Of a stretch of 20,000 bases of DNA, positions 1,729 to 18,915 are shown in pieces. The stretch comes from Thelocarpon superellum. Its lineage: Eukaryota. Within the stretch, counting starts at the first letter, position 1; every line of letters begins with the position of its first letter. The position numbers were made by a program, and so were the translations under genes. Below the pieces are notes generated by a model that saw only the letters and a program-made list of their open reading frames with translations, ran no database searches and was not told where the DNA came from. The stretch spans positions 44,764-64,763 of the forward strand of contig JAPEUG010000055.1 of the NCBI GenBank assembly GCA_026025795.1. Reading direction: 5' to 3'.

Positions 1729-3097
1729 ATGGACCTCAAACCCATTCCCGCCTTCTACTGTTGCTATCTCTTGAGGTCGACCGTGCGACATGCGAGCCTT
1801 TACGTGGGCTCGACCCCACACCCGCTGCGACGGCTAGCCCAACACAACGGCCTCATCAAAGGTGGGGCCATCAAGACGTCGCGATCGACTCTGCGGCCGT
1901 GGGAGATGACGTGTCTTGTGACGGGATTTCCGTCTCACGTCGCCGCTCTGCAATTCGAGTACGTGGACACCGCGATGCGCGAGACACGCGAAGCTCTCCG
2001 ATGGAGAGATAGAACATGTCTTGGAATCGTCCATCACCGCTGACACCGCGCATGGTAGGTGGGCATGGCAGCATACACATCTTACCCGACATATTCCCGT
2101 CGCCCAGCGTCTCACCGAGGCACGCACACTGGTCCGCGTTTCACCCAAGACGGGCCGCACGCGTCGCCGGCCGACCCGTCCGCGCATGTCGCTGACGGAC
2201 CAACTATCGAATCTTAATCTACTCTTGACCGCTGATACCTTTGTGCGGTGGCCCCTTGAGCTTCGCTTCTTTTGCGAGGACGTCTTCGCCGTCTGGCAAC
2301 GGTGGACGGAGCGAGTCGATGAGGCTGCTCGGACCACCGTCCCGGTCGTCTTGGACCTTCTCAGACCTCGGGAGCGAGGTGAGGGTGGCGACCCGGACGG
2401 AGGTTCGAGCTCCCCTCTCGCCCCGTCAAAGAAGCAGACGCGTGGGTTGGTGGGTCAAGGCGGCATTCACGGCCTCGACGTCGGGTACCGTGGGCTTACG
2501 GCTCATGTTGAGAAGAGTAAGACGCTTCTCGAGTCGGCCACACCACCGGCATGTGCCCTATGCCACACCACGCTCCGACGCGACGAGGACTTGACGGGCG
2601 TGTGTCCTCACGACAAGTGCCACACCGTCACTCATCTGACCTGTCTCTCCCATTTGTTCCTGGCGTCGGCGTCTGAGCAGGATATGGTGGTGCCCGTACG
2701 AGGGAATTGCCCTGGATGTGGTCGAAGCACCCGATGGGCGGATGTTGTCAAAGAGTCCTCCCTTCGGCTCCGCGGCTCGTCGGAGGTGGAAAAGCTGATC
2801 AAGCCTGCGCGAGGGAAGAAATCGCGGGTGGCCAAGGAGGTCGCGATGACACCTGCTGGTGAGGAGAGCAATCGGGCGATCTTGACCGTGAGCTCAGAGG
2901 TGGACATGTCCGACGAGGCGATGTCTCTTGATGACGAAGACGACGACGACGCCATGTCCATGACGAGCGCGTCCTCTGTCGACTCTAGACCCTCACTGAG
3001 CCTGGCAGGCCCCCTCGCGTCACGATCGATGGGTCCGCAGCGGCTTGAGGCTGTGGTGGAGGATAGTGAGTGGGACGACGCCGAGGTCCTGGACTAG
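1729..3097 (+). CDS. SLX1: Structure-specific endonuclease subunit SLX1 (GIY-YIG nuclease plus C-terminal RING-like zinc finger)
   Basis: Exons 1729-1958 and 2059-3097. Intron 1959-2058 (GTACGT...GCTGAC...TAG) restores ALQFE|WAWQ. Motifs: [27 protein letters not shown], and the zinc finger CALC...CPH..C...HLTCL...CPGC. Confidence 0.95.
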
Positions 3098-3113: not shown

Positions 3114-3930
3114 TCATGATTGGTGAGACCGTGACCGTAACGGCTGTATCGTACCCAGCGCCTGATCTGAAGCGCTGGTGTCGATCTGCTGTAACTGGGC
3201 CAGGACAGCCTGGAGCACGTTATCCTCGACCGTGTCTCGGGACTCGCCCCCATCGATGACATGAAAGATGTCTTTCTCGTACACGGTGCGTAGCTCGTAG
3301 AAGAGCGCCCTCACACGGGCCTGCATGGCCTGATTCTCGTACCGCTCGCCGCCAAAGCCCGCTCTGGCCGCGGCCGTGTCGGCGGAGAGCTCCAGAAAGA
3401 TGCAAACGTCCGGACGGGGCAGGCCGACGTCGGGCCAGCGCGCCCACTCGAGATCGATGCCGGGAATGTCCTTGGCCGCCGAATACACACAGCCCGAGTA
3501 GCAGTAACGGTCTACGATGACGGTCGTTCCGGCGGCAATGTCTGACGTGATTCGTGCTCTATTTGTTCAGCGGAGTCGCACGTGGAGGAACGGGGAGAGG
3601 ATTTCGGGTGTCGAAGGACATACGCAGCTTCCCATCGGTTGGCGGCGAAGAGCAAATGGATGACATGATCGTCTTGCTGGGCCTGGCCCGTGAGGTATTG
3701 ATTAATGATGGTGCCGGTGGGGGTAGAGCGATCTAGCGTCAGAGGTCAACATCAGCATCATGTGGCCTCTTACGACCCTTGGAGTGGTGGGGGAAGTATC
3801 AACCTGGAAACTTGACATATCGAACATCATGGCCGCGTGCCTCCAAATTCTTGACAAGTAATCCGCATTGAGTAGACTTCCCCGCTCGATCTAGCCCTTC
3901 GACGACAATCAGAGCACCACGTTTGGCCAT
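3114..3930 (-). CDS. CDC8: Thymidylate (dTMP) kinase
   Basis: Exons 3930-3804, 3732-3624 and 3558-3114; introns 3803-3733 (GTTGAT...CTGAC...TAG) and 3623-3559 (GTATGT...TAG). Spliced protein: MAKRGALIVVEGLDRAGKSTQ (P-loop), FPDRSTPTG, HLLFAANRWE, DRYCYSGCVYSAAK, GLPRPD, GFGGERYE. Confidence 0.95.
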
Positions 3931-4266: not shown

Positions 4267-5963
4267 ATGGACAACGGCAGCTCTGCATCAGAGATGCCAC
4301 GTTTCCGCGTGCATCCAAGCGTCCTCGAATCTCTTTCTCCTTCGTCCTCTTCTTCTCTGGGGCCACGACTAGGCCGATTATCTTATCCAAGGCGGAACCC
4401 CATCGACACGCCCCACTACCTCGCCATCACCTCACGGGGCGCCATCCCGCATCTGTCGCAGGATACGATGAGACAGCGGACGGAAGTGAAGGGGGTGTAC
4501 GTGGCGCTGGAAGACTGTGAGTCTTTTACTGTATTTGAACTCTTCACCCTCTGGTCCTTGGGGAAAAAAAGCTTGATACCAGTCAGTCGCTGACAAAGGA
4601 CAATTTCCGGGGCGCAATACAAGTCGTTGAGAAAGCGCCACGCGAGATACCGCCCATATTCAAGATGCACAGTGCAGGGGGAGAGACTCTGGAAGGAGGC
4701 GGCGGAGGTGTAGCTCCCGAAGGCGATGAGTCGACATTGAGGCGTTTCATCTCTCTACAGGCCGACACTCTCCTCGTCCTCGCGCCGCGCCGCCTTCCCA
4801 CGCTCGCGTGTCCGGCGTCCAATACCGACCGCGCCATCTCCATCGTCACCTCCGTCGGCTTCCGCCAGCTGCCGATGCAGGAATACATTGACGCGGCGCG
4901 CACGCTGGCGCCCGATATCGTCGTCGGCATGGGCGATGTTGTGTATTATCCGCGTGGCGGCGGCGGCGGCGGCGGCGGCGGCTTACCTGAGTCGACGACG
5001 ACGACGACGACGACAAAGACGCCGTCGCTGAAACGCATTTCGAAGATGGAGGATCGCACCCTGGTCTGGACACGGGAACTGGTGGAGGAGCTGTCCCATG
5101 GCAGCAGGAACGCAGGACAAAGCAGCACACCGGCACTCTTCGTGCCCATCTTACCCATCGCGCACCCTCACCAGCAGATCTATCTCGACCATCTAGTCGA
5201 GTCGTTGCACCTCCCGCAAGACACCACTACCGGCATCATCTCAGGCTTGGCGCTCTACGACGCAGCGTCCACCCTCGACCTGCCTCCCCCGCTACGCTCC
5301 CTTCCCCGTCTATGCCTCGCGGAGCCGGTGGACCCTCATGTCCTGCTGCGCGATGTAGCACTCGGCGTTGACCTGGTCACTGTTCCGTTCATTGGCGCCG
5401 CGACGGACGGGGGGATCGCGCTTGATTTCCGCTTTGGGTCTCCTTCTCCGTCTCCTCCGTCTCCTCCGTCTCCGCCGTCTCCTCTGGGCGTCGACATGTG
5501 GGACAGCGCGCACAGCACATCCCTCACCCCGCTCTCTACCGGGTGCACATGCCACACATGCCGCACGCACCATCGCGCCTACCTCCAGCACTTGCTCGTC
5601 GCAAAGGAGATGCTCGGGTGGGTGCTGCTCCAGATCCACAACTTGCATGTCATGGACGCCTTCTTTGCTGCGGTGCGTGCCAGTCTCGCTGCCGGCGGGT
5701 CGGAGCGCTTTGAGGAGGATAGGAGAGCTTTCGCCCGCGCGTACGAGCCGGATCTGCCGCCTAAATCGGGTCTTGGTCCTCGGTGAGTGGACAATCATCA
5801 GGGGTCGCTGAAGTGTCGCCGCGTGGTTGCTGACGCTGCGGCAAGGGTCCGTGGATACCAGTTCAAGGCAAATGGACCCGGTGAGCCAAAGAGGAACGAG
5901 CCGGCGTATCGCACGTTGGATGATTCTGGTCCTCTCGCGGTGCCTTTCCCGGACATTGCATAA
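4267..5963 (+). CDS. QTRT2: Queuine tRNA-ribosyltransferase accessory subunit 2 (non-catalytic eukaryotic TGT subunit)
   Basis: Exons 4267-4516, 4624-5782 and 5846-5963; introns 4517-4623 and 5783-5845 (both GTGAGT...GCTGAC...AAG). Motifs: RLGRL...IDTPHYLAITSRGAIPHLSQD, ALEDF|VEK, Zn site CTCHTCRTHHRAYLQHLL..KEMLGWVLLQIHN, and C-terminal GPR|VRGYQFK. Confidence 0.9.
4956..5014 (+). repeat. Adjacent coding trinucleotide microsatellites (GGC)n and (ACG)n
   Basis: A GGC run encodes poly-Gly and an ACG run encodes poly-Thr inside QTRT2 exon 2 (RGGGGGGGGGGLPESTTTTTTTK). Confidence 0.9.
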
Positions 5964-6066: not shown

Positions 6067-8309
6067 TTAGTCGCCTCCCAGCAACTCCCATAGACTCCCC
6101 TCTTGCACATAGGCATGATGAATCACATTCACGAGCCAGTAACCCTCCTTCACGTGCTTCAACAGCGCCGCCGTCGGCGACCGTGGTGGGTAGACACGCC
6201 GCCATTCGTCCCAGATGCTAAAAGCTTCTTCCTGCCACGCGCGAAAGGACACGGCTTCGATGATGGTGGGCGTGATGATCCTGCGGCATGTCAGCACCAG
6301 GGTTGCCGCATGGATGTGACCTGGCACACGGACTCCTTGCCGGGAAATGCGCCCCACGTGACCGCGTTGACCGCGTCGACGTCCGACGACGCACTCTCCC
6401 CTGATGCGTTGCCGGCGTAGTACGACACCTCTTCGAGCGTGTCAAGTCGAGCGTGAAGGGCTGTCCATTCAGACGTGGGGAGAAAGAACTCCACAAAGGC
6501 CTTGGAGGACGACGTGAGCACCGCCATCTGGTATGGTAAGGAGACGCCCCACGGACCTTCTGAAAGACAAACCCCCCCTTGGGTCCCCACCCAAACAGAC
6601 CGTGGTCACTTCGGACCCCGTTGACCGCCGGCTGGCTGGCCACGGTCCACCAGCCGCGTCGGTTCAGCTTGACCAGCTCGGATCGAATGGCGGCACTCTC
6701 CTCATTCAAGCCCTCCTCGCTCCATGGAAGGGCGTCGACCTCACCCAAGACATGTCGCACGAAGATGTCGGAGATGTCGGCGGTGCTCGTCGGCGAGCCC
6801 CAGAGTCGCACCGCTTGGGATACGGACACATGCAGCGAGACGCCATATCCGTCAATCTCGCCGTACGCTGCCACATATCGTCAGCCTCACTTTCCTTCCC
6901 ACGACCGCTTCCTGCGTCATCACATCACTCACCCGGTGACCGGGCGTCGCCCCAGCGGCCGTTGGGATAGTCGTCCCACGTCGCTTCCCTCCCCAGCGAC
7001 CCCTCCCCCTCGGAAATGGCCAGGGTGTTCGCCCGGGTGTTGATCTTGTCTTTGGGGACGCCGGCCTCGTCCGCCGAGGCTTCAAAGTGCGAATTGCTCG
7101 ACGCATCGTCCACCACGACCCGGTTGTAGGGGTCCGACACGACCGACGACGTTCGGCGAGGATGCTGGCGAGGGGCGCCGATGGCCCCGCTGGCCCCGTT
7201 GCCGCCATTGGTCAGATGCTTGGTGCTGGTCTCCTCGACCGCCACCTCATCCGGCGTATCCGGCGTCGAGGGCGCGATCAGGTGGCATCGTTCCAACACA
7301 AACGCCACGGCCTTTTCCAGGTTCAAGGTGTAGAAATGAAAGCCTCGGGGCGTGGGCGACGGGCGGTCCTTGATCGCCTCGACGATGTCGCTGACAATCT
7401 CCACCCCGGCTCGCTTGACCGCCTCGTCATCCCCCTTGACGGCGTCGAGTCGCGCCAACATGGGGGCTGGAATCTTGGCGTGGCTGAGCTTCGTCGTGCG
7501 TCGCAGGAGCTGGTAGCTCTGGATCGGCATCAAGCCGGGGATGATGACCATCTCTGCGAAGACGCCGGATGGATCGTGTCGTAGCATGCTCTCAAACGCC
7601 TGATATGCCCGCACGTCGTAGAATAGCTGGGTCATGATGAAGTCCGCGCCGGCCCGAGTCTTGTCGATCAGGGAAGGGAGGTCGTGTTGGGCACTTTGGC
7701 TCGCGGGGTAGGATTCGTCGGCGTGTCCTTCCGGGTAGGCGGCGACGCCGATGCAAAAGTATTGGCCGTGACGACGACGGATGTAGCGGACGAGATCGAT
7801 GGCCCAGGTGAACTCGCCCTCGCCCTCGCCCTCGCCCTCGCCCTCGCCCTCGTCCTGGCCGTCGACCTCTCCCGGGTGCGGTGCGTGGCGATACTCCTCC
7901 TGCCGGGGCGGATCGCCTCGCAGGGCCAGGATGTTGCGGATGCCGAGGGCCTTGGCCTGGTCGAGCGCCTGGTCGACGAGCGAGCGGTTCATGTTGGTGC
8001 AGGTCAGATGCAGGCAGGTGGTGAGGCCCAGCTGTCGCTGGCAGATCTCGGCGAGCTCGAGCGACTTGCCGGCCGTGCTGCCGCCGGCGCCCCAGGTGAC
8101 ATTGACGAAGAGCGGTCGTAGGCCACGAGCCATTCGCTCGAGTCGGGCCTGGAGGTTGGCGGAGCCCTGTCCCCTGTCAGCACGGGGTGCCGTCACCGTT
8201 GGGGCCGGGTCCTCCTCCCTACCATGGCCGTCTTGGGCGGGAAGAACTCCAACGAGAAGAAGTGGCCGTTGGCCGGCAAGGCGGCGATCTTGTCCGTGAT
8301 CTTCTCCAT
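6067..8309 (-). CDS. MET12: Methylenetetrahydrofolate reductase, Met12-type paralog
   Basis: Exons 8309-8223, 8166-6933, 6867-6557, 6500-6334 and 6280-6067; introns 8222-8167, 6932-6868, 6556-6501 and 6333-6281. Motifs: FSLEFFPPKT, VTWGAGGST, HLTCTN, ILALRGDPP, VAAYPEGH, FIMTQLFYD, HFYTLNLEK; regulatory domain TWDDYPNGRWGDARSPAYGE, SQPAVNG, FQKAFVEFF, NAVTWG.FPGKEI. SLEFFPPKT and TWGAGG match Met12 rather than Met13 (SFEYFVPKT, TWNAGG). Confidence 0.93.
7814..7851 (-). repeat. Hexanucleotide repeat (TCGCCC)n encoding a Gly-Glu repeat in MTHFR
   Basis: The + strand reads tcgccc about 6 times; the minus strand translates as DEGEGEGEGEGEF in a loop of the catalytic domain. Confidence 0.9.
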
Positions 8310-8456
8310 TGCCGCATCTCTCGCCTCTCCCGCGTCTCCCTCGAGAGCCTCGCTCGGGTGTCGCCGGGCTCGGACCAGGCCTCGGGGCCGCGGGGTGCAC
8401 CTGTGTGGCGTATGTGAGGGGTCAGCACACGGCCGACCGGTCAAACAAACGTCACG

Positions 8457-8488
8457 GCGACGAAGCGACGGAGCGACGAAGCGACGAA
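8457..8488. repeat. Tandem 8-mer (GCGACGRA)x4
   Basis: gcgacgaa gcgacgga gcgacgaa gcgacgaa, upstream of the MET12 ATG. Confidence 0.85.
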
Positions 8489-8541: not shown

Positions 8542-8659
8542 CGCTCAATTTGGAACCCCGCAGCCGCTAAGCCCCCTGTAGCCGCTAGAGCCCCCCGTAG
8601 TCAACAAAGCCCCCCGTAGTCCCACTGTCAACCTCAACGGTCGGGGTCCAAATTGAGCG
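8542..8659. repeat. Inverted repeat pair enclosing three 19-bp-period direct repeats
   Basis: CGCTCAATTTGGAACCCCG (8542-8560) and CGGGGTCCAAATTGAGCG (8642-8659) are reverse complements apart from one indel. AGCCCCCYGTAG occurs at 8570, 8589 and 8608. Confidence 0.85.
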
Positions 8660-8666
8660 CCTTTAG

Positions 8667-8674
8667 TATAAAAA
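8667..8674 (+). promoter_or_regulatory. Putative TATA box for a + strand non-coding transcript
   Basis: TATAAAAA in an otherwise GC-rich interval, about 140 nt upstream of the first C/D-like element. No credible + strand protein gene follows. Confidence 0.5.
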
Positions 8675-8806
8675 GCTTGCGTCCCCGACATCCCGTCCAT
8701 CAGTATTTTGTGTGTTTTTTCATCATAAGCTGAAGCTTACAGAGATCCTTCACATTTCATCATTTGGACGGGGGAAAAGTTCTCTCTCGTCCTCGCAGGG
8801 GGTTCA

Positions 8807-8891
8807 GACTGAGGATGAGACTCACCACGGCGACACTTCCTCTTCGCCTCTGGGTGGGGATGCGAAAGCGCCGCGGGATGTCACTGAAGTC
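8807..8891 (+). ncRNA. Putative box C/D (K-turn) small RNA, copy 1
   Basis: Terminal stem GACT (8807-8810)/AGTC (8888-8891). C-like box AGGATGA at 8812-8818 and D box CTGA at 8884-8887, with canonical spacing. Internal stems GAC/GTC, CGGCG/CGCCG and the hairpin TCTTCGCC-tctg-GGTGGGGA. Confidence 0.65.
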
Positions 8892-9005
8892 GAAGGCCCA
8901 CCGTCGCACTGTCCCGAATGTTATGGTGTCCGGTGCTGTTATCAGGTTGCATGTGGGTTGGTTTCCAGCAGAAGCCGACGCTTGCAGAAAGTCGTGGCTG
9001 TGTCA

Positions 9006-9088
9006 GACTGAGGATGAGACTCACCACCGCCACGTTCCTCTCCGCCTTCGGGCGGGGCTGCAAAGTGCGGCGGGATGTCACTGAAGTC
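9006..9088 (+). ncRNA. Putative box C/D (K-turn) small RNA, copy 2
   Basis: Stem GACT (9006-9009)/AGTC (9085-9088), AGGATGA at 9011-9017, CTGA at 9081-9084. Apical hairpin CTCCGCC-TTCG-GGCGGGG has a C(UUCG)G tetraloop. Outer flanking stem GTCGTGG (8991-8997)/CCACGAC (9095-9101). Confidence 0.65.
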
Positions 9089-9833
9089 CAAGGCCCACGA
9101 CAGCACTCTTTCTTCTCGACTGTGCTGTGGGAGGCGAGGGAGAGGATCGGAGGAGACGAGGAAGATGTCCCGGCACGATCTGGCTGGGGCGGAGACCTGG
9201 CATTTATACCTGCGCCTCCGTCTACGAGTCTACTACGTTGATGCCTTCGTGCTCCTTGTGGCAGCGGCGATGGTATCGTGGGAAGATGCGGTGGAGGAGC
9301 GAACATCACGAGCGGGACGCATCGGGCAGGAATGACGGCGGCTACGGAGGGGGGCTGCATCAACCGTGTAGGTAACCGCCCGCTTCTCACGGCCCTCAGC
9401 AGTCGTGAGGCACCGAAGAGGCAGGGACGACCGGGCTGACGAAGACGATGGCTACTTTTGGGCGGATTCGTCAGAGATCGCCTTCCGAGGGCCAGTCTCA
9501 CGGCAGAGACCCAGGCATGGTACGCTGACGAGCGGAAAGGAGAAGGGACGACGACTCCCTTCGCATCGGATGCGTGGCATGCCGGAGAGGATGGGGGAGG
9601 CACGGCGCCACGAACGACTCTACGGCAATGACGAGGAAGGGATAGAGGTGACCGGAGAGGTGTCGGATGGTGTTCAATTGAATGAGAGCGAGAAATGGCT
9701 ACGACCATGGCATGTTCATGATCCCGTTACATGGCAGCGCCCCGTCGTGTCCGACATGACCCAGCCCACCCACGCAGTGGTATCCGTGAGCCTGCCCCCG
9801 CCCGTAAACGCCGACCCAGTGCTGTGTCCCCCT

Positions 9834-12800
9834 CTAGACGCACGTCCATTCGGCAAAGACACACCAGCGAGCACTGCGATCCGCCAGCACCAGACCCCGC
9901 CAGACCCCCCGCTCGCCGCACTTGATGATCGTCTCCCACACCCCGCCATCACCCGCCTCGCTGCCGCCCGGCCCGCTGGTGGAGATGGTGTGATCGTTCT
10001 TCCGCATCAGCCGCAGGATCTTGCCCGAGGGCGCCTGCACCGCCAGCTTGGCCGGCTTGGCCTGCGATGCCCCGTCGCTCGAGGGACCGCCGCCCGCGGC
10101 CGACGAGCTGGCCAGCGACATGGCCGAGCTGGGCCGGGGAAAGGGGATGGGCGAGGTCGAGCGCACGTCCGGCGAGACGTTGCGGGGCGCAGACGGGTGC
10201 TGGCGCACGGCAAAGACAAAGGTGTTGTTGACGGCGAGGCGTGCACATTGCGGCTGTGCCACGTAGAGGTCGTGTCGTTGCGCGTGCGGCGTTGGGTGGC
10301 GCGTCAGGAAGTCGTAGGCCGGGTTCTGCCCGTGGTGGACGATGGGCACCGCAAAGGCCAGCGGATGAGGATTGTCCTTGATCGAATGCTAGTGGCCGGT
10401 GAGCATGCCATCCTCGCTCTCCCCGCAGCCCGGGCGCAGGGTGGGGTGACTCACCATCAACCCCCTCTTCCCCGCATACACCTTGAGCACCCCCTGGCCC
10501 TCGTCCCCGGGCAAGAGCGCCTTGACCGTATACCGCTTCTGCCCGCCGATCCACTCGGCCTGGGCCAGCGCCCGCTTGCGCACCACGTCGCCGCTCTCGA
10601 ACAGATCCCCGTCCGCGTCGCGCTCAAAGGCGCGGGCCTCGACCTCGGCGACACACTCGACGTCGTGGGGGACCACGACCTGGAGCTGCACCTGTTCCAG
10701 CTCCTCCGTCCACAGCAGGCTGGTGTCGTAGTCGCGCATCTGGAGGCGATGCCGGAAGAAGGGCGCGCAGGCGCAGGGAAGGGCCATCAGGATGGCCTGG
10801 TGCACCGGCGGACACAGATGCTGCTGCGCCGCCGTCATGGGGACGTGCGTGTAACAGGCCTCGAGCGGACGGGTCAGGAACCACCAGGCCTCGGCCGTCT
10901 GGGAATGCGAGCTCGAGTACTGGCTGCGGCGTGGATGTGTCGGGCTGGCCAAGGAGCAGTCCATGATGCGCCACTCGCCATCGGCCATCACCGCGTTCCA
11001 CCAGTGATCCGGCCGCGGCACTGTCTCGCGCTCCATCGTCTCGCCGGGGGCCTTGAGGTGGCCGCGCACAACCTCGGCGTGCATGCCCATGGCCTGACAC
11101 ATCTCCAGCACGAGCACCGCCACCTCCTCGGCACATCCGCGCTTGAGCTGGATCACCCGACGCGAGTCGACCTCGCCCTCAAAGTCCTCCTCCCACGAGA
11201 TCTTCTCGCTGACCCAGATGAAGATGGCCCGCAGGCGCTGCACGTCGCTCCGGTACGGGCGACAGAGGTAGCCTTGCGCCAGGCTGATGGGGTTGGTCAT
11301 GGGCGGGATGTTGTTGACGAAGCGCGCGCTCTTGTCCACCAGCGTCAGATTCACGGCCTGGAAGTTGGTCGGGCCCTCGACCGGCCGACCGTCGACGCCC
11401 TCGTCGCCGTGCGTCGAGTGGCGCAGCTCGTCGACCGGCCGAAGACACGGCCGGTCCAACATCTGGCACCGTTCCTGCCGCTCCACCCGCTCGTTCCGAC
11501 TGAGCGAGTTCGACCGGTTGACGTCACGCCGGACCTGGACCCAATCGATGGCCGTGCCGCCGCCATTGGCCTCGGCCTCCGTCGCCGCCATCCCTCCCGC
11601 GATGGCCGTCACTCCGTGGGGCAAACCGCTCGCCGTCGGGGCGAGGGACGTGGCGGCGTGCCCGGGCGCGATACTGCTCCGGGCGCTGGCGGCGCTCGTC
11701 TTGGCCGTGTCCATGATCTTCTTGAAAAAACCACTCTTCTTCGGGCGCGGCGCCATCAGGCCCCCGAGCGGACCCTGAGCGCTCGTCCCGCTCGCCGGCC
11801 CACCAGCCTGCGATCCGTCGGGCGTCGACGTGTCGTAGCCCGAGTGAAAGGTGACGCCGGTGAGGGGCGTTTCGGGTCGGCCCGTGCCGGAGGCGGAGAG
11901 CGGGCCCACCGCACTGCCCGCCGTCGTCTCCATCACGCTCATGGGCCGGGAGCGGAGGGTACCAAAGGCGCCACGTCGGCGCGCCAAGCTTCCCGCACTG
12001 GTGGCACTGCAGCCGCCGGCGCTGGCGGCACTCACCCCGCCGGCCGACTGTCCGCTCATGACGCTGCGGCTGGTCAGCTGCGTGCTGCCGCTGTGGGCGG
12101 TGCTCGTGCTCTGTACTCCCGACGACGAGTTCGTCGCGGTGGATCGAGTGGTGAAGGTGCGGCCCAGCATCTGACGCCCGAGCTCGTAGGCCGACTTCCG
12201 GTTCTTCAAGCGTTTGCTAGTATCGGGAGCGTCGGTGGTCGGCTGAGTCTGCGCCAGCGAGGACACGGGCCGCCCGTCAAAGGAGGCACGCTTGGGCGGG
12301 ACAGCGGGGGGTGGGCCAAAGTCGGGCGAGCCCTCCTTGGAAGGAAGGAAGAGCTCATCGGGCGCTCGCCGGCCGGATTGCTGCTGCATTCCTTGCAAGC
12401 GGCGCTCCATGCGGTGCACGTAGTTGTCCGGCTGCAGTGGGCCGCGATCGTCGCCGTACGCAAACTCAAGCTCGTCCTCCTCGTCGTGATCGTGCGCGCC
12501 GCCGAACCCCAGGGAGGTCACGGGTCGAGCGGGACGACGGGCGAACGTCTTGGACAGCTGCTGATCGAAGGCTTCGGGCGACCAGGGATTGAGCGGCGAG
12601 CGGTTGCGCGACGGCGGCGAGGGGGGGTGCACGCTCATGTCTTTGAGAGACGACATGACATCCTCCATGGCATCGCGGAGGGGCGATGGCGTGGTGCGCG
12701 AGAGATTGGGCGAGCGCGGCACGGCGGACGTCGGGCGCGATGGCGTGTAGCCATTTGTGTAATGCTCGTCATACGGCACGGATGGTGACGGCGCTCGCGA

Positions 12801-13539
12801 TGCATCGTACGGGATCCGGTGCGGCGGAGGCGCAGGTGGCGGCGAGGAGCCCGCGTCTTGATAGGGCTGCGGGGACGGTCCACGCGAGGCATGATGACGG
12901 TCCCACGAGGGGGTTGGTGACGGTCCCCGTGATGGGTATTCCCCATGATCGGGCAGGCGGGAGTGGGACCCGGCCGGCTGGTTGAGCGGGTCCAGGGGAT
13001 TCGGAAAAGAGGCGCGCGAGCTCTCCCTCGTCATGGGCTGGGGACTTCGCGAGCCGGTGCGAGTGTAGGCAGCGAACGGCTTTCGGAACGACTTGCCTGG
13101 GGCTCGCTGCGGCATCATCGAGGCCGCCGACGCTCCGTTGACCTGGTGCGACCCGTTTGCGGGGTGGGCATCCATAGCATTGGCGGGAGCGCTTGGCGCT
13201 GGGCTCACTCCACGGCTGCTGTCGGGACGATAGCTCTCCTCGAGTACCCGGACGAAGTTGGATGGAAAGAGACCCATCATCCGCCGATCCCGCTTCAGCC
13301 GACCCATCCACCATGAGCCATCGCCGGCATTGAGGCATTCGATCAGGTCGCCCTCGATGAACCCGAGGTCCCGTTTGGTCTACTCCACCCCGTGACTATT
13401 AGCAAGGTGCTCGGGCATGATTGCCGTCACGCACGACGGGGCCGGCGGATAGATCGAGGCTCACCTCTCCGCCCCAGGAGTACACGGCTCGACACCAGCA
13501 GGGGAACCGAATCGGCAGTTCCGCCGCCACGGGTGCCAT
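9834..13539 (-). CDS. CYK3: Cytokinesis protein Cyk3 (N-terminal SH3 plus transglutaminase-like domain)
   Basis: Exons 13539-13465, 13379-10455 and 10388-9834; introns 13464-13380 (GTGAGC...GCTAAT...TAG) and 10454-10389 (GTGAGT...GCTCAC...TAG). SH3: FPCWCRAVYSWGGE|TKRDLGFIEGDLIECLNAGDGSWWMGR...GLFPSNFV. TGc-like region: QRLRAIFIWV...HWWNAV...WRIMDCSLA. C-terminus: WRGLVLADRSARWCVFAEWTCV. Confidence 0.92.
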
Positions 13540-14331: not shown

Positions 14332-15886
14332 TCACCGCGGCTCCTGATGCGCCTGTGCTGCCTTCCGCTGCGCCCAACGCTCTCGCTTAGCCTCGGCCTC
14401 GGCCCACTGCTGCTGCGCGATCTCCTTCTTCCGTCGTGCGTCGTACGTCTTGGCCTGTTCCAGTTCCTGCTTGGACCGTTTCCGGCTTCCGTCCGCCGTC
14501 GAGCCCGTGTACTTCTCGACCGTCTTCTTCATCTCGTTGCTCATCCCACGAAATTCCTTCACCGCGCCGTCGACCACACCCTTGACGCGTCCCGGCGGCT
14601 TGACGGCCTTCACCGGTACCATCGTGCTCGGTGCGGGACGTGTCGGCGCCACGGGCGCCTGGTATCGGTCGGCCAGGGTCATCGTCCCCGCGTATCGCGG
14701 CGCCGACGGAGCGCTCCCCCCAGCGGCGGATGCCGCGGACGGGCGTGGGAGAGGCGCGATCCCAGCCCAGGCGCGGAAGGACGGGGTGCGGAACAGGGTG
14801 GACTGGCCGAACGAGAGCAAGCTCGTGATGAAGAACCACAGCTGAAGCGCGCCAGGCATGGCGGACATGAAGATGAAGGTGATGGCGGGGAGGATGTAGA
14901 CCAGGAGCGCCTGGAACCGCTGCGTCTCGGGCGAGACAACCATGGCGCCTGTCTCGCCGCCCAGGCGCAAGACGACGTAGAGAAAGCCGGCGGTGGCGGT
15001 GGGGAGGAGGTAAAGGGGATCCGACACCGTCAGGTTGTGCAGCCACAACATGCCGCCGTCGCTCAAGCCCGGCACCGGCAACGTCGCCATGCCCCGCAGC
15101 AGCCGGAACGCGCCGTATCCCAGGGGAATCTGGATGAAGGGGCCGAAGACGGCCACGGTCCGGATCCCCGCCCGTTTCTTGATCTGTTGCAGTTCCTGTC
15201 GCGCCCGGAGGACGCCGGCCGTATCGCTCGCGCGCGAGCACTCGCTCATCCGGTCCGTGATGGGTTTCGTCACGTGCGTGATGGCGGCCGAACGGGCACT
15301 GGCGTCGGCCGCGCCCAGGAAGAGCCGGAATAAGGCGGCACGAAAGAGCAAGGCGGTCAGGGTGATGGAGACCCACCAGGGCGTGCCGGCATAGACATGC
15401 ACGTGCTCCAGCACCCATTCCATCAGCGCCGTGGGACCCCAGCCATAGTCCAGCCCAAGCTCCTTGAGAAAGCCAATTCGTTCCGTGACCGACGACATGT
15501 CCATCGTCGTCAGGTCAGTCGCCGCGTCGAGAGAGGAGGTCGGAATAGCGGCGATCGGGGGAGGCGTCGGGGCTGGGGGACTGGGCATGCTCGAGTTGAA
15601 TCGGATCGATCGTGCCAAAGCCCCCCCGATCCATGACGGAGGACTTGAGATTCTCCATGATGGCTTTGTGTGGGCGAAGATGCACGGTGGGGGATATACG
15701 CGCGAGCTCGAGGGAGCCGGGATTGTTTGGGATCCAGAAAACTGACATGCAGCGTCAGTGGACATGTCATCGCTGATCATAGCAATCGAAGCTCACCGGT
15801 CGGGTTGATATGGGAGGCCGCGGTACCCTGAGAGATCGGGGGCCCGGCGAGGGGGCACAACATCTCAATGACCGGCCGCGGAACAT
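14332..15886 (-). CDS. OXA1: Mitochondrial inner membrane insertase Oxa1 (YidC/Oxa1/Alb3 family)
   Basis: Exon 15886-15797 encodes an Arg-rich presequence, MFRGRSLR... (in-frame ATGs at 15892 and 15904 are alternative starts). Exon 2 is 15741-14332; intron 15796-15742 (GTGAGC...CTGAC...CAG). Motifs: IGFLKELGLDYGWGPT, HVYAGTPWWVSI, QIPLGYGAFRLLRGM, GGMLWLHNLTVSDPLYLLP, and a basic C-terminal tail. Confidence 0.92.
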
Positions 15887-17509: not shown

Positions 17510-18915
17510 ATGGCTACTCCGGCATCGCAGGAAGAGCGTGATGCCATGATCGACCAGTTTTGCAGAGTCACGTCGGCCCCGCCACATGAGGTGCGTCGGA
17601 GGCATCTGCTCACCCTGCGCTAAAGCTTGCTCACTCGGGCGCCCAGGCCGAGCTACACCTCTCCACTAGTCACTGGGACCTGTCGAGCGCCGTCACCGAA
17701 TACTACACGTCGCTCGAGGACAGCGGCGCCGAGGCACTCGAGGACGATGCCATGACGGATGACGCCGGGGACCCCCTCAGCGCCTCCGGCGCCCAGCTGC
17801 ACGGGCGGACCCTGGGCGGACCCGCCGCACCGGTACCCGTCTCCTCCACCGCCGCGACCCGACCCGCCTCGTCCGCCCCGCCCAAAGCTCCGCCCAGCAA
17901 CAAGAAATTTGCCACCTTACGGGACCTGAACCAGGACCAAGGCCACTCGCATGGACACGGACACGGCCACGGTGATGATGAAGAGGAGGACGATGCTCAG
18001 CGTGATCTCTTTGCGGGCGGCGAGAAGTCGGCCTTGGCGGTCCAGAACCCCAGCGACCCGCGCAACCAGGTCAAGGAGATCCTAGACAAGGCTCGCAAGT
18101 ATCTCATCACTCTACCCGACGATGCTCCGGGAGACGAGCTAATGCGCGGCAGAAACTTGCCACGACCGGGTGGAGAGGAATCGTCAACCTCGACCTCTCG
18201 ATTCCGCGGCGCAGGTCAGACGCTCGGAGGCGATGACACGCCGAGCCAAGTCATCCCAGATCCACACGCCCAAGCCCCGCGGCCACGTGCCCCGGTGACG
18301 CGGACTTTGCACTTTTGGCGGGATGGCTTCTCGGTGGAGGATGGGACGCTCTATCGCTTCGACGATCCTGCCAACAATGCCGTGCTGAGCCTTATCCGAT
18401 CTGGCCGTGCACCATTGGACATTATGGAAGTCGAACCGGACCAACTGGTGGATGTGACGGTGCACCAGCACGAGGAAAATTACGTGCAGCCCAAGAAGAA
18501 GTACAAGCCCTTCGGTAGCGGCGGACAGCGACTGGGTAGTCCTACTCCTGGCGCCGACGTAAGCAGTGGCCATACCGTCGCCACCACCGCCATTGCTCCC
18601 AGCGACCCTGCATCTTCAAGCAGCTCCTCGTCGAACCCGGTCGCGGCCACGGGCGTGGTCGTGGACGAGTCCCAGCCCACGATCAACCTCCAGATCCGCC
18701 TCGCGGATGGTACGCGACAGGCCTCAAGATTCAACACGACGCACACCATCGGCGACGTGTACGCCTACATTGAGGCCAGCATGGCCAGCGCAGCCGGACG
18801 GCCGTGGGTGCTCATGACCACCTTCCCAAGCAAAGAGCTGACCGATCGACACATTGCACTGGGCGACTTGGCAGAGCTCAAACGCGGGGGCGTCGTGGTG
18901 CAGAAGTGGGCCTGA
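17510..18915 (+). CDS. SHP1: UBX domain Cdc48/p97 cofactor Shp1/Ubx1 (p47): UBA-like, SEP and UBX domains
   Basis: Exons 17510-17590, 17647-18098 and 18153-18915; introns 17591-17646 (GTGCGT...CAG) and 18099-18152 (GTATCT...GCTAAT...CAG). Motifs: LFAGGEKSALAVQNP, FRGAGQTLG, SEP (LHFWRDGFSVEDG.LYRFDDP...GRAP), PFGSGGQRLGS, UBX (QIRLADG...RFNTTHTIGDVY...TTFPSKEL). Confidence 0.95.

Follow-up and report, generated by a model that had tools for sequence, protein, structure and literature searches.

Paralogous hairpins with a predicted box C/D-type kink-turn lie opposite splice-donor-like sites upstream of an MTHFR gene in Thelocarpon superellum

The stretch of Thelocarpon superellum DNA analyzed here (contig JAPEUG010000055.1, positions 44,764 to 64,763) is a 20-kb window with 62.75% G+C, and the protein clusters nearest to its genes are mostly from Ascomycota. 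An MTHFR gene lies on its minus strand, and the next gene upstream on the same strand, which is CYK3-like, ends at 9834; the 1.5-kb spacer between them carries two conserved blocks, each of which includes a hairpin, referred to here as K1 and K2. We propose, with a probability of roughly one half, that K1 and K2 are paralogous genes for a structured orphan small RNA of the box C/D type, transcribed from the + strand and antisense to the host of a minus-strand small nucleolar RNA (snoRNA) or to the leader of MTHFR. As predicted from the sequence, the terminal stem, a 3-nt bulge, tandem G.A/A.G pairs, a U.U and a G-C pair would form a kink-turn (K-turn) of the type that nucleates box C/D particles, and the remainder of each element would be a long imperfect helix under a UNCG-type hairpin. 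The coordinates of the features are collected in Table 1.

Results

An earlier note on this DNA had described two copies of about 105 nt (8804-8910 and 9003-9107) with invariant ends, and both were recovered by the repeat search and by the alignment. In the direct-repeat families, 8804-8834 pairs with 9003-9033 (94%) and 8865-8910 with 9062-9107 (85%). When the full blocks are aligned globally, 16 of 108 columns differ (about 85% identity), and the flanks outside them cannot be aligned between the copies. Each of the two invariant blocks occurs exactly twice in the window at 0 mismatches, a count of two that was reached by 0 of 200 shuffles, and no third copy was found in the window even at 3 mismatches. 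The differences are unevenly placed: all 12 of those within the hairpin (8807-8891) fall in 8829-8872, and there are none in 8804-8828 or in 8873-8891, that is, basal blocks of 25 nt and 19 nt are identical between the copies (0 differences in 44 basal nt, 12 in the central 44 nt). With 12 differences distributed at an even rate across 8804-8891 (88 nt), the chance of this central clustering would be 0.5^12, about 2e-4. Because all the hairpin differences are central and the basal blocks are identical, the copies are one conserved unit with a freer centre, rather than a pair with a diverged middle; this pattern of constraint agrees with that of snoRNA paralogs. As to the previous statement that the middle differs and keeps its pairing, the middle is less diverged than was implied and the evidence from pairing is modest. 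The internal-loop motifs TTCCTC and TGC(G)AAAG, which had been listed as conserved, are present in both copies.

The base of K1 and of K2 reads GACU-GAG-GAUGA...CUGA-AGUC, in which a 4-bp stem is followed by the 3-nt bulge, the tandem G.A/A.G pairs, the U.U and the G-C. Both strands of the window were scanned with a strict K-turn pattern (a 4-bp Watson-Crick stem, 3 nt, GATGA, 35-110 nt, CTGA and the other side of the stem), and only three places matched: K1, K2, and a canonical snoRNA next door on the minus strand, which has the same register (CCA-AAU-GAUGA ... CUGA-UGG). The same scan on 300 shuffled windows gave a mean of 0.013 matches and a maximum of 1; the box C/D K-turn geometry that had been claimed for the + strand is thus exact in its layout and rarely expected in shuffled sequence. 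Box C is AGGAUGA in both hairpins, in agreement with RUGAUGA at 6 of 7 positions and with G, not U, at position 2, and the CUGA of box D is present in both (9081-9084 in K2). The box C with GGAUGA, correctly described before, has a precedent in CD50 of Neurospora crassa, where by our own reading of Additional file 1 of PMC2780460 AGGAUGA is the only box-C-like motif near the 5' end.

On the + strand, K1 and K2 fold at -34.9 and -35.4 kcal/mol (z-scores -2.2 and -1.8), and the minus-strand folds are less stable (-29.8 and -33.5 kcal/mol). The consensus fold reaches -32.5 on the + strand with all helices and the apical hairpin kept, compared with -24.2 on the minus strand, where the apical hairpin is lost and the calculation covered a longer stretch than the + consensus. 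When the copies are folded with their flanks the z-scores are +0.5 and -0.4, and these do not discriminate between the strands. In the K-turn-aware structure, 21 of 21 Watson-Crick or wobble pairs form in K1 and in K2, a degree of shared pairing for which the two-sequence shuffle control is non-discriminating (249 of 500 shuffles were equally good). In one pair both bases differ (G8829-C8872 in K1, C9028-G9069 in K2), and two changes, at 8844 and 8855, convert a wobble into a Watson-Crick pair. Copy 2 has C.U in place of the pair 8832-8869, a loss that a register shift and a bulged C offset, and it also lacks the U-A pair that closes the apical stem; the copies also differ by matched 1-nt deletions, one on each side of the internal loop. 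The UUCG loop reported earlier is found in K2, and the apical loop of K1 reads UCUG here, with UCCG in its place in two strain contigs (8851 T>C).

The + strand is favoured by the exact C/D K-turn, by the UUCG/UCCG apical loops, and by the more stable fold and the pairing of the apical stem. Read on the minus strand, the apical loops become CGAA, CAGA and CGGA, in which we recognise no stable tetraloop class, and the apical stem of K1 contains 3 A.C mismatches in 8 pairs. On the other side of the balance, two positions that are mismatched in the + structure (8823.8878 and 8827.8874) form G.U pairs in both copies when the minus strand is read.

The canonical minus-strand snoRNA is located between the + TATA box and copy 1, and its 5' end and that of K1 are 34 nt apart, head to head. 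It shows 15 weak matches to CD-box families, all below the gathering score (the best at 24 bits to snoR31/Z110/Z27; SNORD24 at 21.5 bits), it was also found by box scans, and its fold has a z-score of -3.75, a stability equalled in 0 of 200 shuffles. A covariance model constructed from K1 and K2 has this snoRNA as its best non-self match (15.3 bits, rough E 0.023). The window contains only two TATAAA hexamers, at + 8667 and minus 9208, and these are convergent and bracket the three small-RNA-like elements. The upstream TATA box of the earlier note therefore exists, but the minus-strand snoRNA that stands between it and copy 1 had been overlooked, as had the second TATAAA. No N. crassa C/D homolog of K1, K2 or the minus-strand snoRNA was seen by eye among the listed sequences of PMC2780460.

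Table 1. Features of the spacer upstream of MTHFR (window positions)
Feature	Position	Strand	Description
Conserved block 1	8804..8910	.	hairpin and 19-nt tail 8892-8910, tail partly conserved
Conserved block 2	9003..9107	.	from repeat search and alignment
K1, predicted 85-nt box C/D-type hairpin RNA	8807..8891	+	strict K-turn scan, folds, pair table
K1, basal parts		+	terminal stem 8807-8810/8888-8891; 3-nt bulge 8811-8813; GAUGA 8814-8818; CUGA 8884-8887
K1, apex		+	stem 8841-8848/8853-8860, loop UCUG
K2, predicted paralogous 83-nt hairpin	9006..9088	+	basal blocks identical to K1; apical loop c(UUCG)g
TATA element TATAAAAAG	8667..8675	+	133 nt upstream of K1, 17 nt past the 3' end of the minus-strand snoRNA
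CT-rich tract	8780..8796	+	directly upstream of K1
Canonical box C/D snoRNA	8692..8772	-	8-bp terminal stem; box C AUGAUGA 8763-8757; D' CUGU 8742-8739; 5-bp D'-C' hairpin; C' AUGAUGA 8726-8720; box D CUGA 8703-8700
TATAAAT	9202..9208	-	about 95 nt upstream (minus sense) of block 2; CT-rich tract ~9165-9128 follows
GUGAGU, 5' splice-site-like	8820..8825	-	inside K1, 52 nt upstream of the snoRNA 5' end
GUGAGU, identical hexamer	9019..9024	-	inside K2
Branch-point CUGAC (8425), then CACAG	8401..8425	-	strong 3' splice site, CAG ending 8401, 92 nt upstream of the MTHFR ATG

Several other identities were considered for the two copies. ARAGORN detected 0 tRNA or tmRNA genes, and a hammerhead core, a SECIS-like form, a second K-turn around the apical stem and U14- or U3-like features were rejected by eye. 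A coding origin was discarded: the open reading frames at 8764-9084 (+), 8918-9241 (+) and 8881-9708 (minus) have no Pfam match, the translation of the last is of low complexity, and the copies are spaced 199 and 197 nt apart, which is out of frame. A transposon origin was likewise rejected, as neither terminal inverted repeats nor target duplications were seen by eye and the window holds no further copy. The pattern scan of metagenome contigs gave 1 match, read as coding sequence, and that of genome contigs gave 3, in bacterial metagenome-assembled genomes; these four were taken as chance matches, given that none folds like K1 and that they have 55-61 of 91 aligned positions in common with it. 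Four strings from the invariant blocks were not found in a full-text literature search, and six motifs sought in the seven supplements of PMC2780460 gave 0 matches. CD50 of N. crassa was considered as a homolog, and its common parts with K1 and K2 are only AGGAUGA and the 8-nt UCACCACC, which we do not count as homology. The Homol-D core AGTCAC, as given in the available part of PMC4138321, is absent from the blocks by eye.

Discussion

If K1 and K2 are transcribed from the + strand, their RNAs would assemble first with Snu13 and later with Nop56, Nop58 and fibrillarin, and would accumulate as species of about 83-85 nt. The invariant stretches GAGACUCACCAC, after box C, and GCGGGAUGUCA, before box D, would pair in trans with a target, and the variable central helix would act as a scaffold. 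The D-proximal stretch could guide one 2'-O-methylation, and the C-proximal stretch would contribute accessory pairing only, because there is no D' box. Within the window, complements of the box C stretch are the antisense of the copies themselves and seven matches with 2 mismatches, including probable splice donors of other genes, and those of the box D stretch are again the copies' own antisense and one site with 1 mismatch. Transcription would proceed from the TATA box at 8667. It would run antisense to a minus-strand unit, which would start at the 9208 TATA box, carry the canonical snoRNA, and may be a long leader of the MTHFR mRNA. There are precedents for such genes: the available text of PMC2780460 describes CD53 and CD55 of N. 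crassa as structured orphans, and that of PMC9226516 describes SNORD13 genes as independently transcribed and placed sense or antisense in host genes.

A number of observations weigh against this proposal. The G-U pairs, which had been said to point to the + strand, do not: at stacked positions there are 3+1 wobble pairs on the + strand and 2+2 on the minus strand, four on each. Box C carries G at position 2, where U is nearly universal, and the U at this position matters for binding by Snu13/15.5K. By eye, the sequence around the apical stem has no C'/D' pair resembling CUGA or UGAUGA in register for a K-turn or K-loop, in line with what had been read before, and a looser box scan returned the outer boxes only; there is partial pairing between the two candidate guide stretches, and the + strand proposal assigns no role to the conserved tail of 19 nt that follows each hairpin. 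(Directly after copy 2, and overlapping this tail, 9097-9130 can form a perfect palindromic stem of 7 bp, ACAGCAC/GUGCUGU, with a pyrimidine-rich loop of 15 nt.) The Rfam scan that the earlier note had proposed gave 0 matches over the window at gathering score; at E<=10 over 8600-9300 none was found on the + strand at the copies, while 15 CD-box models touch the adjacent snoRNA, and the minus strand at the copies has only a 16-bit match to a miRNA model. Pattern scans of metagenome and prokaryote contigs found no homologs beyond near-identical strains.

The strain data count on both sides. They come from near-identical contigs from metagenomes, which leave several stretches without cover, and comprise six variants (8836, 8851, 8855, 8872, 9053 and 9058). 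In favour of the proposal, all six are in the central part, and two of them switch the same stem position between G-C and G.U. Against it, five of the six (8851, 8855, 8872, 9053 and 9058) match the state of the other copy, so sequence exchange between the copies is possible, and gene conversion may, beside selection, keep them alike; a possible exchange of this kind weakens the argument from selection. The variant 8872 C>G, seen in one contig at depth 2, would disrupt the sole compensatory pair.

The remaining points against a + strand RNA come from the minus strand itself, which has the canonical snoRNA with an upstream region that overlaps K1, the other TATAAA, two donor-like sites and an orphan 3' splice site; these are signs that this strand may be used. 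As a consequence of these signals, + transcripts, if they exist, would converge with and overlap the minus-strand unit. Given the minus-strand TATA box, donors, acceptor and snoRNA, and since 45 of the 55 C/D snoRNAs of N. crassa are intronic according to the available part of PMC2780460, a minus-strand transcript across both copies is likely under any model.

The main alternative, at odds well short of even, is that the minus strand alone is functional. Its transcript would start from the 9208 TATA box, the conserved blocks would be the first two leader exons with their donors, and the canonical snoRNA, which requires a promoter upstream of it, would be intronic, as most of those of N. crassa are; in one version the intron would run from the 8825 donor to the 8401 acceptor, and MTHFR itself would be the host gene. 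The hairpins, which enclose identical donors, may then set how or how often these are used, and the K-turn of the + strand would be due to chance or be left over from an inverted duplication of a snoRNA. The signals expected of leader exons on this strand (5' splice sites, branch point, acceptor and upstream TATA) are all present in the sequence. From 9250 to 8380 the minus strand has no 5' splice-site-like hexamers other than the two GUGAGU copies, and none was found on the + strand between 8661 and 9250. Both read GUG/GUGAGUCUC (GUG/GUGAGUC), the local 5' splice-site consensus; further near-matches at minus 10446 and 16649 read AUG/GUGAGUCAC, and from its context we take at least the one at 10446 as a real donor. 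The first intron would end at the AG at 8936 or at 8909, after a branch-like CUGAU at 8945. The strong 8401 acceptor has the same form as those of the four coding introns of MTHFR, and by the 5' splice-site pattern its only upstream donors are the GUGAGU sites in the repeats; the weak GUUUGU at 8450 is the only donor nearby and would give an intron of 50 nt. On the minus strand the conserved blocks start AG/UGC, the two G.U pairs mentioned above are gained, and the 8667 element reads TTTTTATA, which we take to be a yeast 3'-end formation motif.

Against a functional minus strand alone, the exact C/D K-turn (0.013 expected per window) and the UNCG loop would be left to chance or to a relic, and invariance over 25 and 19 nt is not usual for leader exons. 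The A.C mismatches in the K1 apical stem and the loss of this stem from the minus consensus fold argue in the same direction, no snoRNA was detected in the first putative intron by box scan and reading, and hairpins that bury donors would hinder splicing unless this is regulated. The putative exons (486 nt) contain no AUG, which at first sight speaks for a leader (P(0) 0.009 in mononucleotide shuffles), but the absence is non-significant when dinucleotides are kept (P(0) 0.11).

A less probable explanation, which we consider unlikely, is that the copies arose from a snoRNA by duplication (for instance an inverted duplication of the neighbouring one and then a tandem one), that they are unexpressed and in decay, that recent origin or gene conversion keeps them alike, and that neither strand is functional. 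The proximity of K1 to the canonical snoRNA and its inverted orientation relative to it would fit such an origin, as would the match of the K1 and K2 covariance model to this snoRNA and the exchange suggested by the strain variants; the available text of a review (PMC11028025) also indicates that copies of snoRNAs can end up in host genes in antisense orientation. In contrast, decay does not predict that 12 of 12 differences fall in the central half, the duplication is not recent because the flanks are unalignable, and both copies retain their boxes, terminal stem and helix, with indels matched across the loop. Finally, a tandem riboswitch-like RNA that senses a ligand or a protein in the minus-strand MTHFR leader and gates the two donors, in the manner of the fungal TPP riboswitch, would suit the position upstream of a gene of one-carbon metabolism, the two tandem copies, the donors within a conserved helix, the invariant internal loops and the variable apex, but we regard it as very improbable, given that the minus strand has no match to a riboswitch family of Rfam at E<=10, that the strand-specific RNA motifs are on the + strand, that no homologs support a conserved pocket, and that a leader reaching this far is only putative.

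An extension of the + strand reading, which we hold to be a long shot, is a sense-antisense module in which two C/D-type K-turn RNAs lie exactly opposite the identical donors of a snoRNA-host leader that may feed the MTHFR mRNA, and in which convergent transcription, or pairing of the particle with the nascent leader, gates splicing and couples the output of the snoRNA and of MTHFR. The stretch proximal to box C is the exact complement of GUG/GUGAGUCUC. If true, this would be a case of a C/D RNA that acts on its own antisense pre-mRNA.

Returning to K1 and K2 as putative genes for small RNAs of the + strand, these resemble canonical C/D snoRNAs (the CD-box families of Rfam and the 55 of N. crassa in the available part of PMC2780460) in the 4-bp stem, in GAUGA and CUGA in K-turn register, in the size of 83-85 nt, in being tandem paralogs and in the invariant stretches beside the boxes, and GGAUGA is found in CD50 too; in contrast, they have no Rfam match, no C'/D' boxes, a GC-rich helical interior and the G at position 2 of box C. 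L7Ae-family K-turns, such as the 5' stem-loop of U4 snRNA and Kt-7, also have the stem, the 3-nt bulge and the tandem sheared G.A pairs, but they are found in other RNA contexts, and the U.U and G-C that follow in K1 and K2 match the C/D subtype.

The acetylation guides of rRNA (SNORD13, snR45 and snR4) are C/D RNAs that do not methylate, and they have two antisense tracts for pairing on either side of the target cytidine in helix 34 or 45 of 18S rRNA; the invariant stretches of K1 and K2 resemble such tracts, and SNORD13 genes have the independent transcription and the possible antisense placement within another gene referred to above (available part of PMC9226516). The tracts of K1 and K2, unlike those of the guides, abut box C and box D. 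Yeast snR4 and snR45 are, moreover, longer than K1 and K2. The fungal TPP riboswitch controls the choice of 5' splice site; if only the minus strand of the present locus is used, the likeness would be that of a structured leader element over donors upstream of a metabolic gene, but it has no similarity in sequence or structure to the repeats (no Rfam match). In the available part of PMC11028025, SNORD86 is described as a cis-acting snoRNA that steers the splicing of its NOP56 host, where, as here, a C/D element and alternative splicing of a host would meet at one locus; in that case one strand carries both the snoRNA and the splice site, whereas the K-turn of K1 and K2 and the donors are on opposite strands.

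If the + strand RNAs are real, they would be a new, structured and non-canonical family within the box C/D class of filamentous fungi, where orphans already exist. Their setting, antisense to the leader of a snoRNA host and over its donor sites, would be unusual, and the locus would offer a compact system in which to ask how the same DNA can hold overlapping small-RNA genes and splicing signals. Should the minus strand alone be functional, there would be a conserved pair of hairpins that enclose donors in the leader of a gene of one-carbon metabolism.

Some minor features of the locus can be added. The MTHFR gene starts with the ATG at 8309, encodes MEKITDKIAALPANGHFFSLEFFPPKTAM, has its first coding intron at 8222-8167 and matches Pfam MTHFR with 283.6 bits. 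An AUG at minus 8317, 8 nt upstream of its start and out of frame, gives a short overlapping upstream open reading frame, and at about 7815-7865 GAGGGC repeats in the coding sequence encode an inserted Glu-Gly repeat of the catalytic domain. The sequence from the MTHFR start to the 8667 TATA box contains a 19-nt tandem repeat (CCCCGTAGCCGCTAAGCC, 3.4 copies, 8556-8619), an 8-nt repeat (GCGACGAA, 4 copies, 8457-8488) and a 17-nt inverted repeat (8542-8558/8643-8659, arms 84 nt apart), all of which could be promoter elements. A loose scan gave one more box C/D-like candidate, weak and probably a false positive, on the minus strand at 3747-3835 (AUGAUGU ... CUGA, 4-bp stem). By Pfam, the neighbouring genes are SLX1 (2021-3097, +), a queuine tRNA-ribosyltransferase (4665-5786, +), the CYK3-like gene with transglutaminase/Ig domains (9834-13307, minus), an Oxa1-like 60 kDa inner-membrane protein (14332-15780, minus) and a SEP/UBX protein (17752-18915, +).

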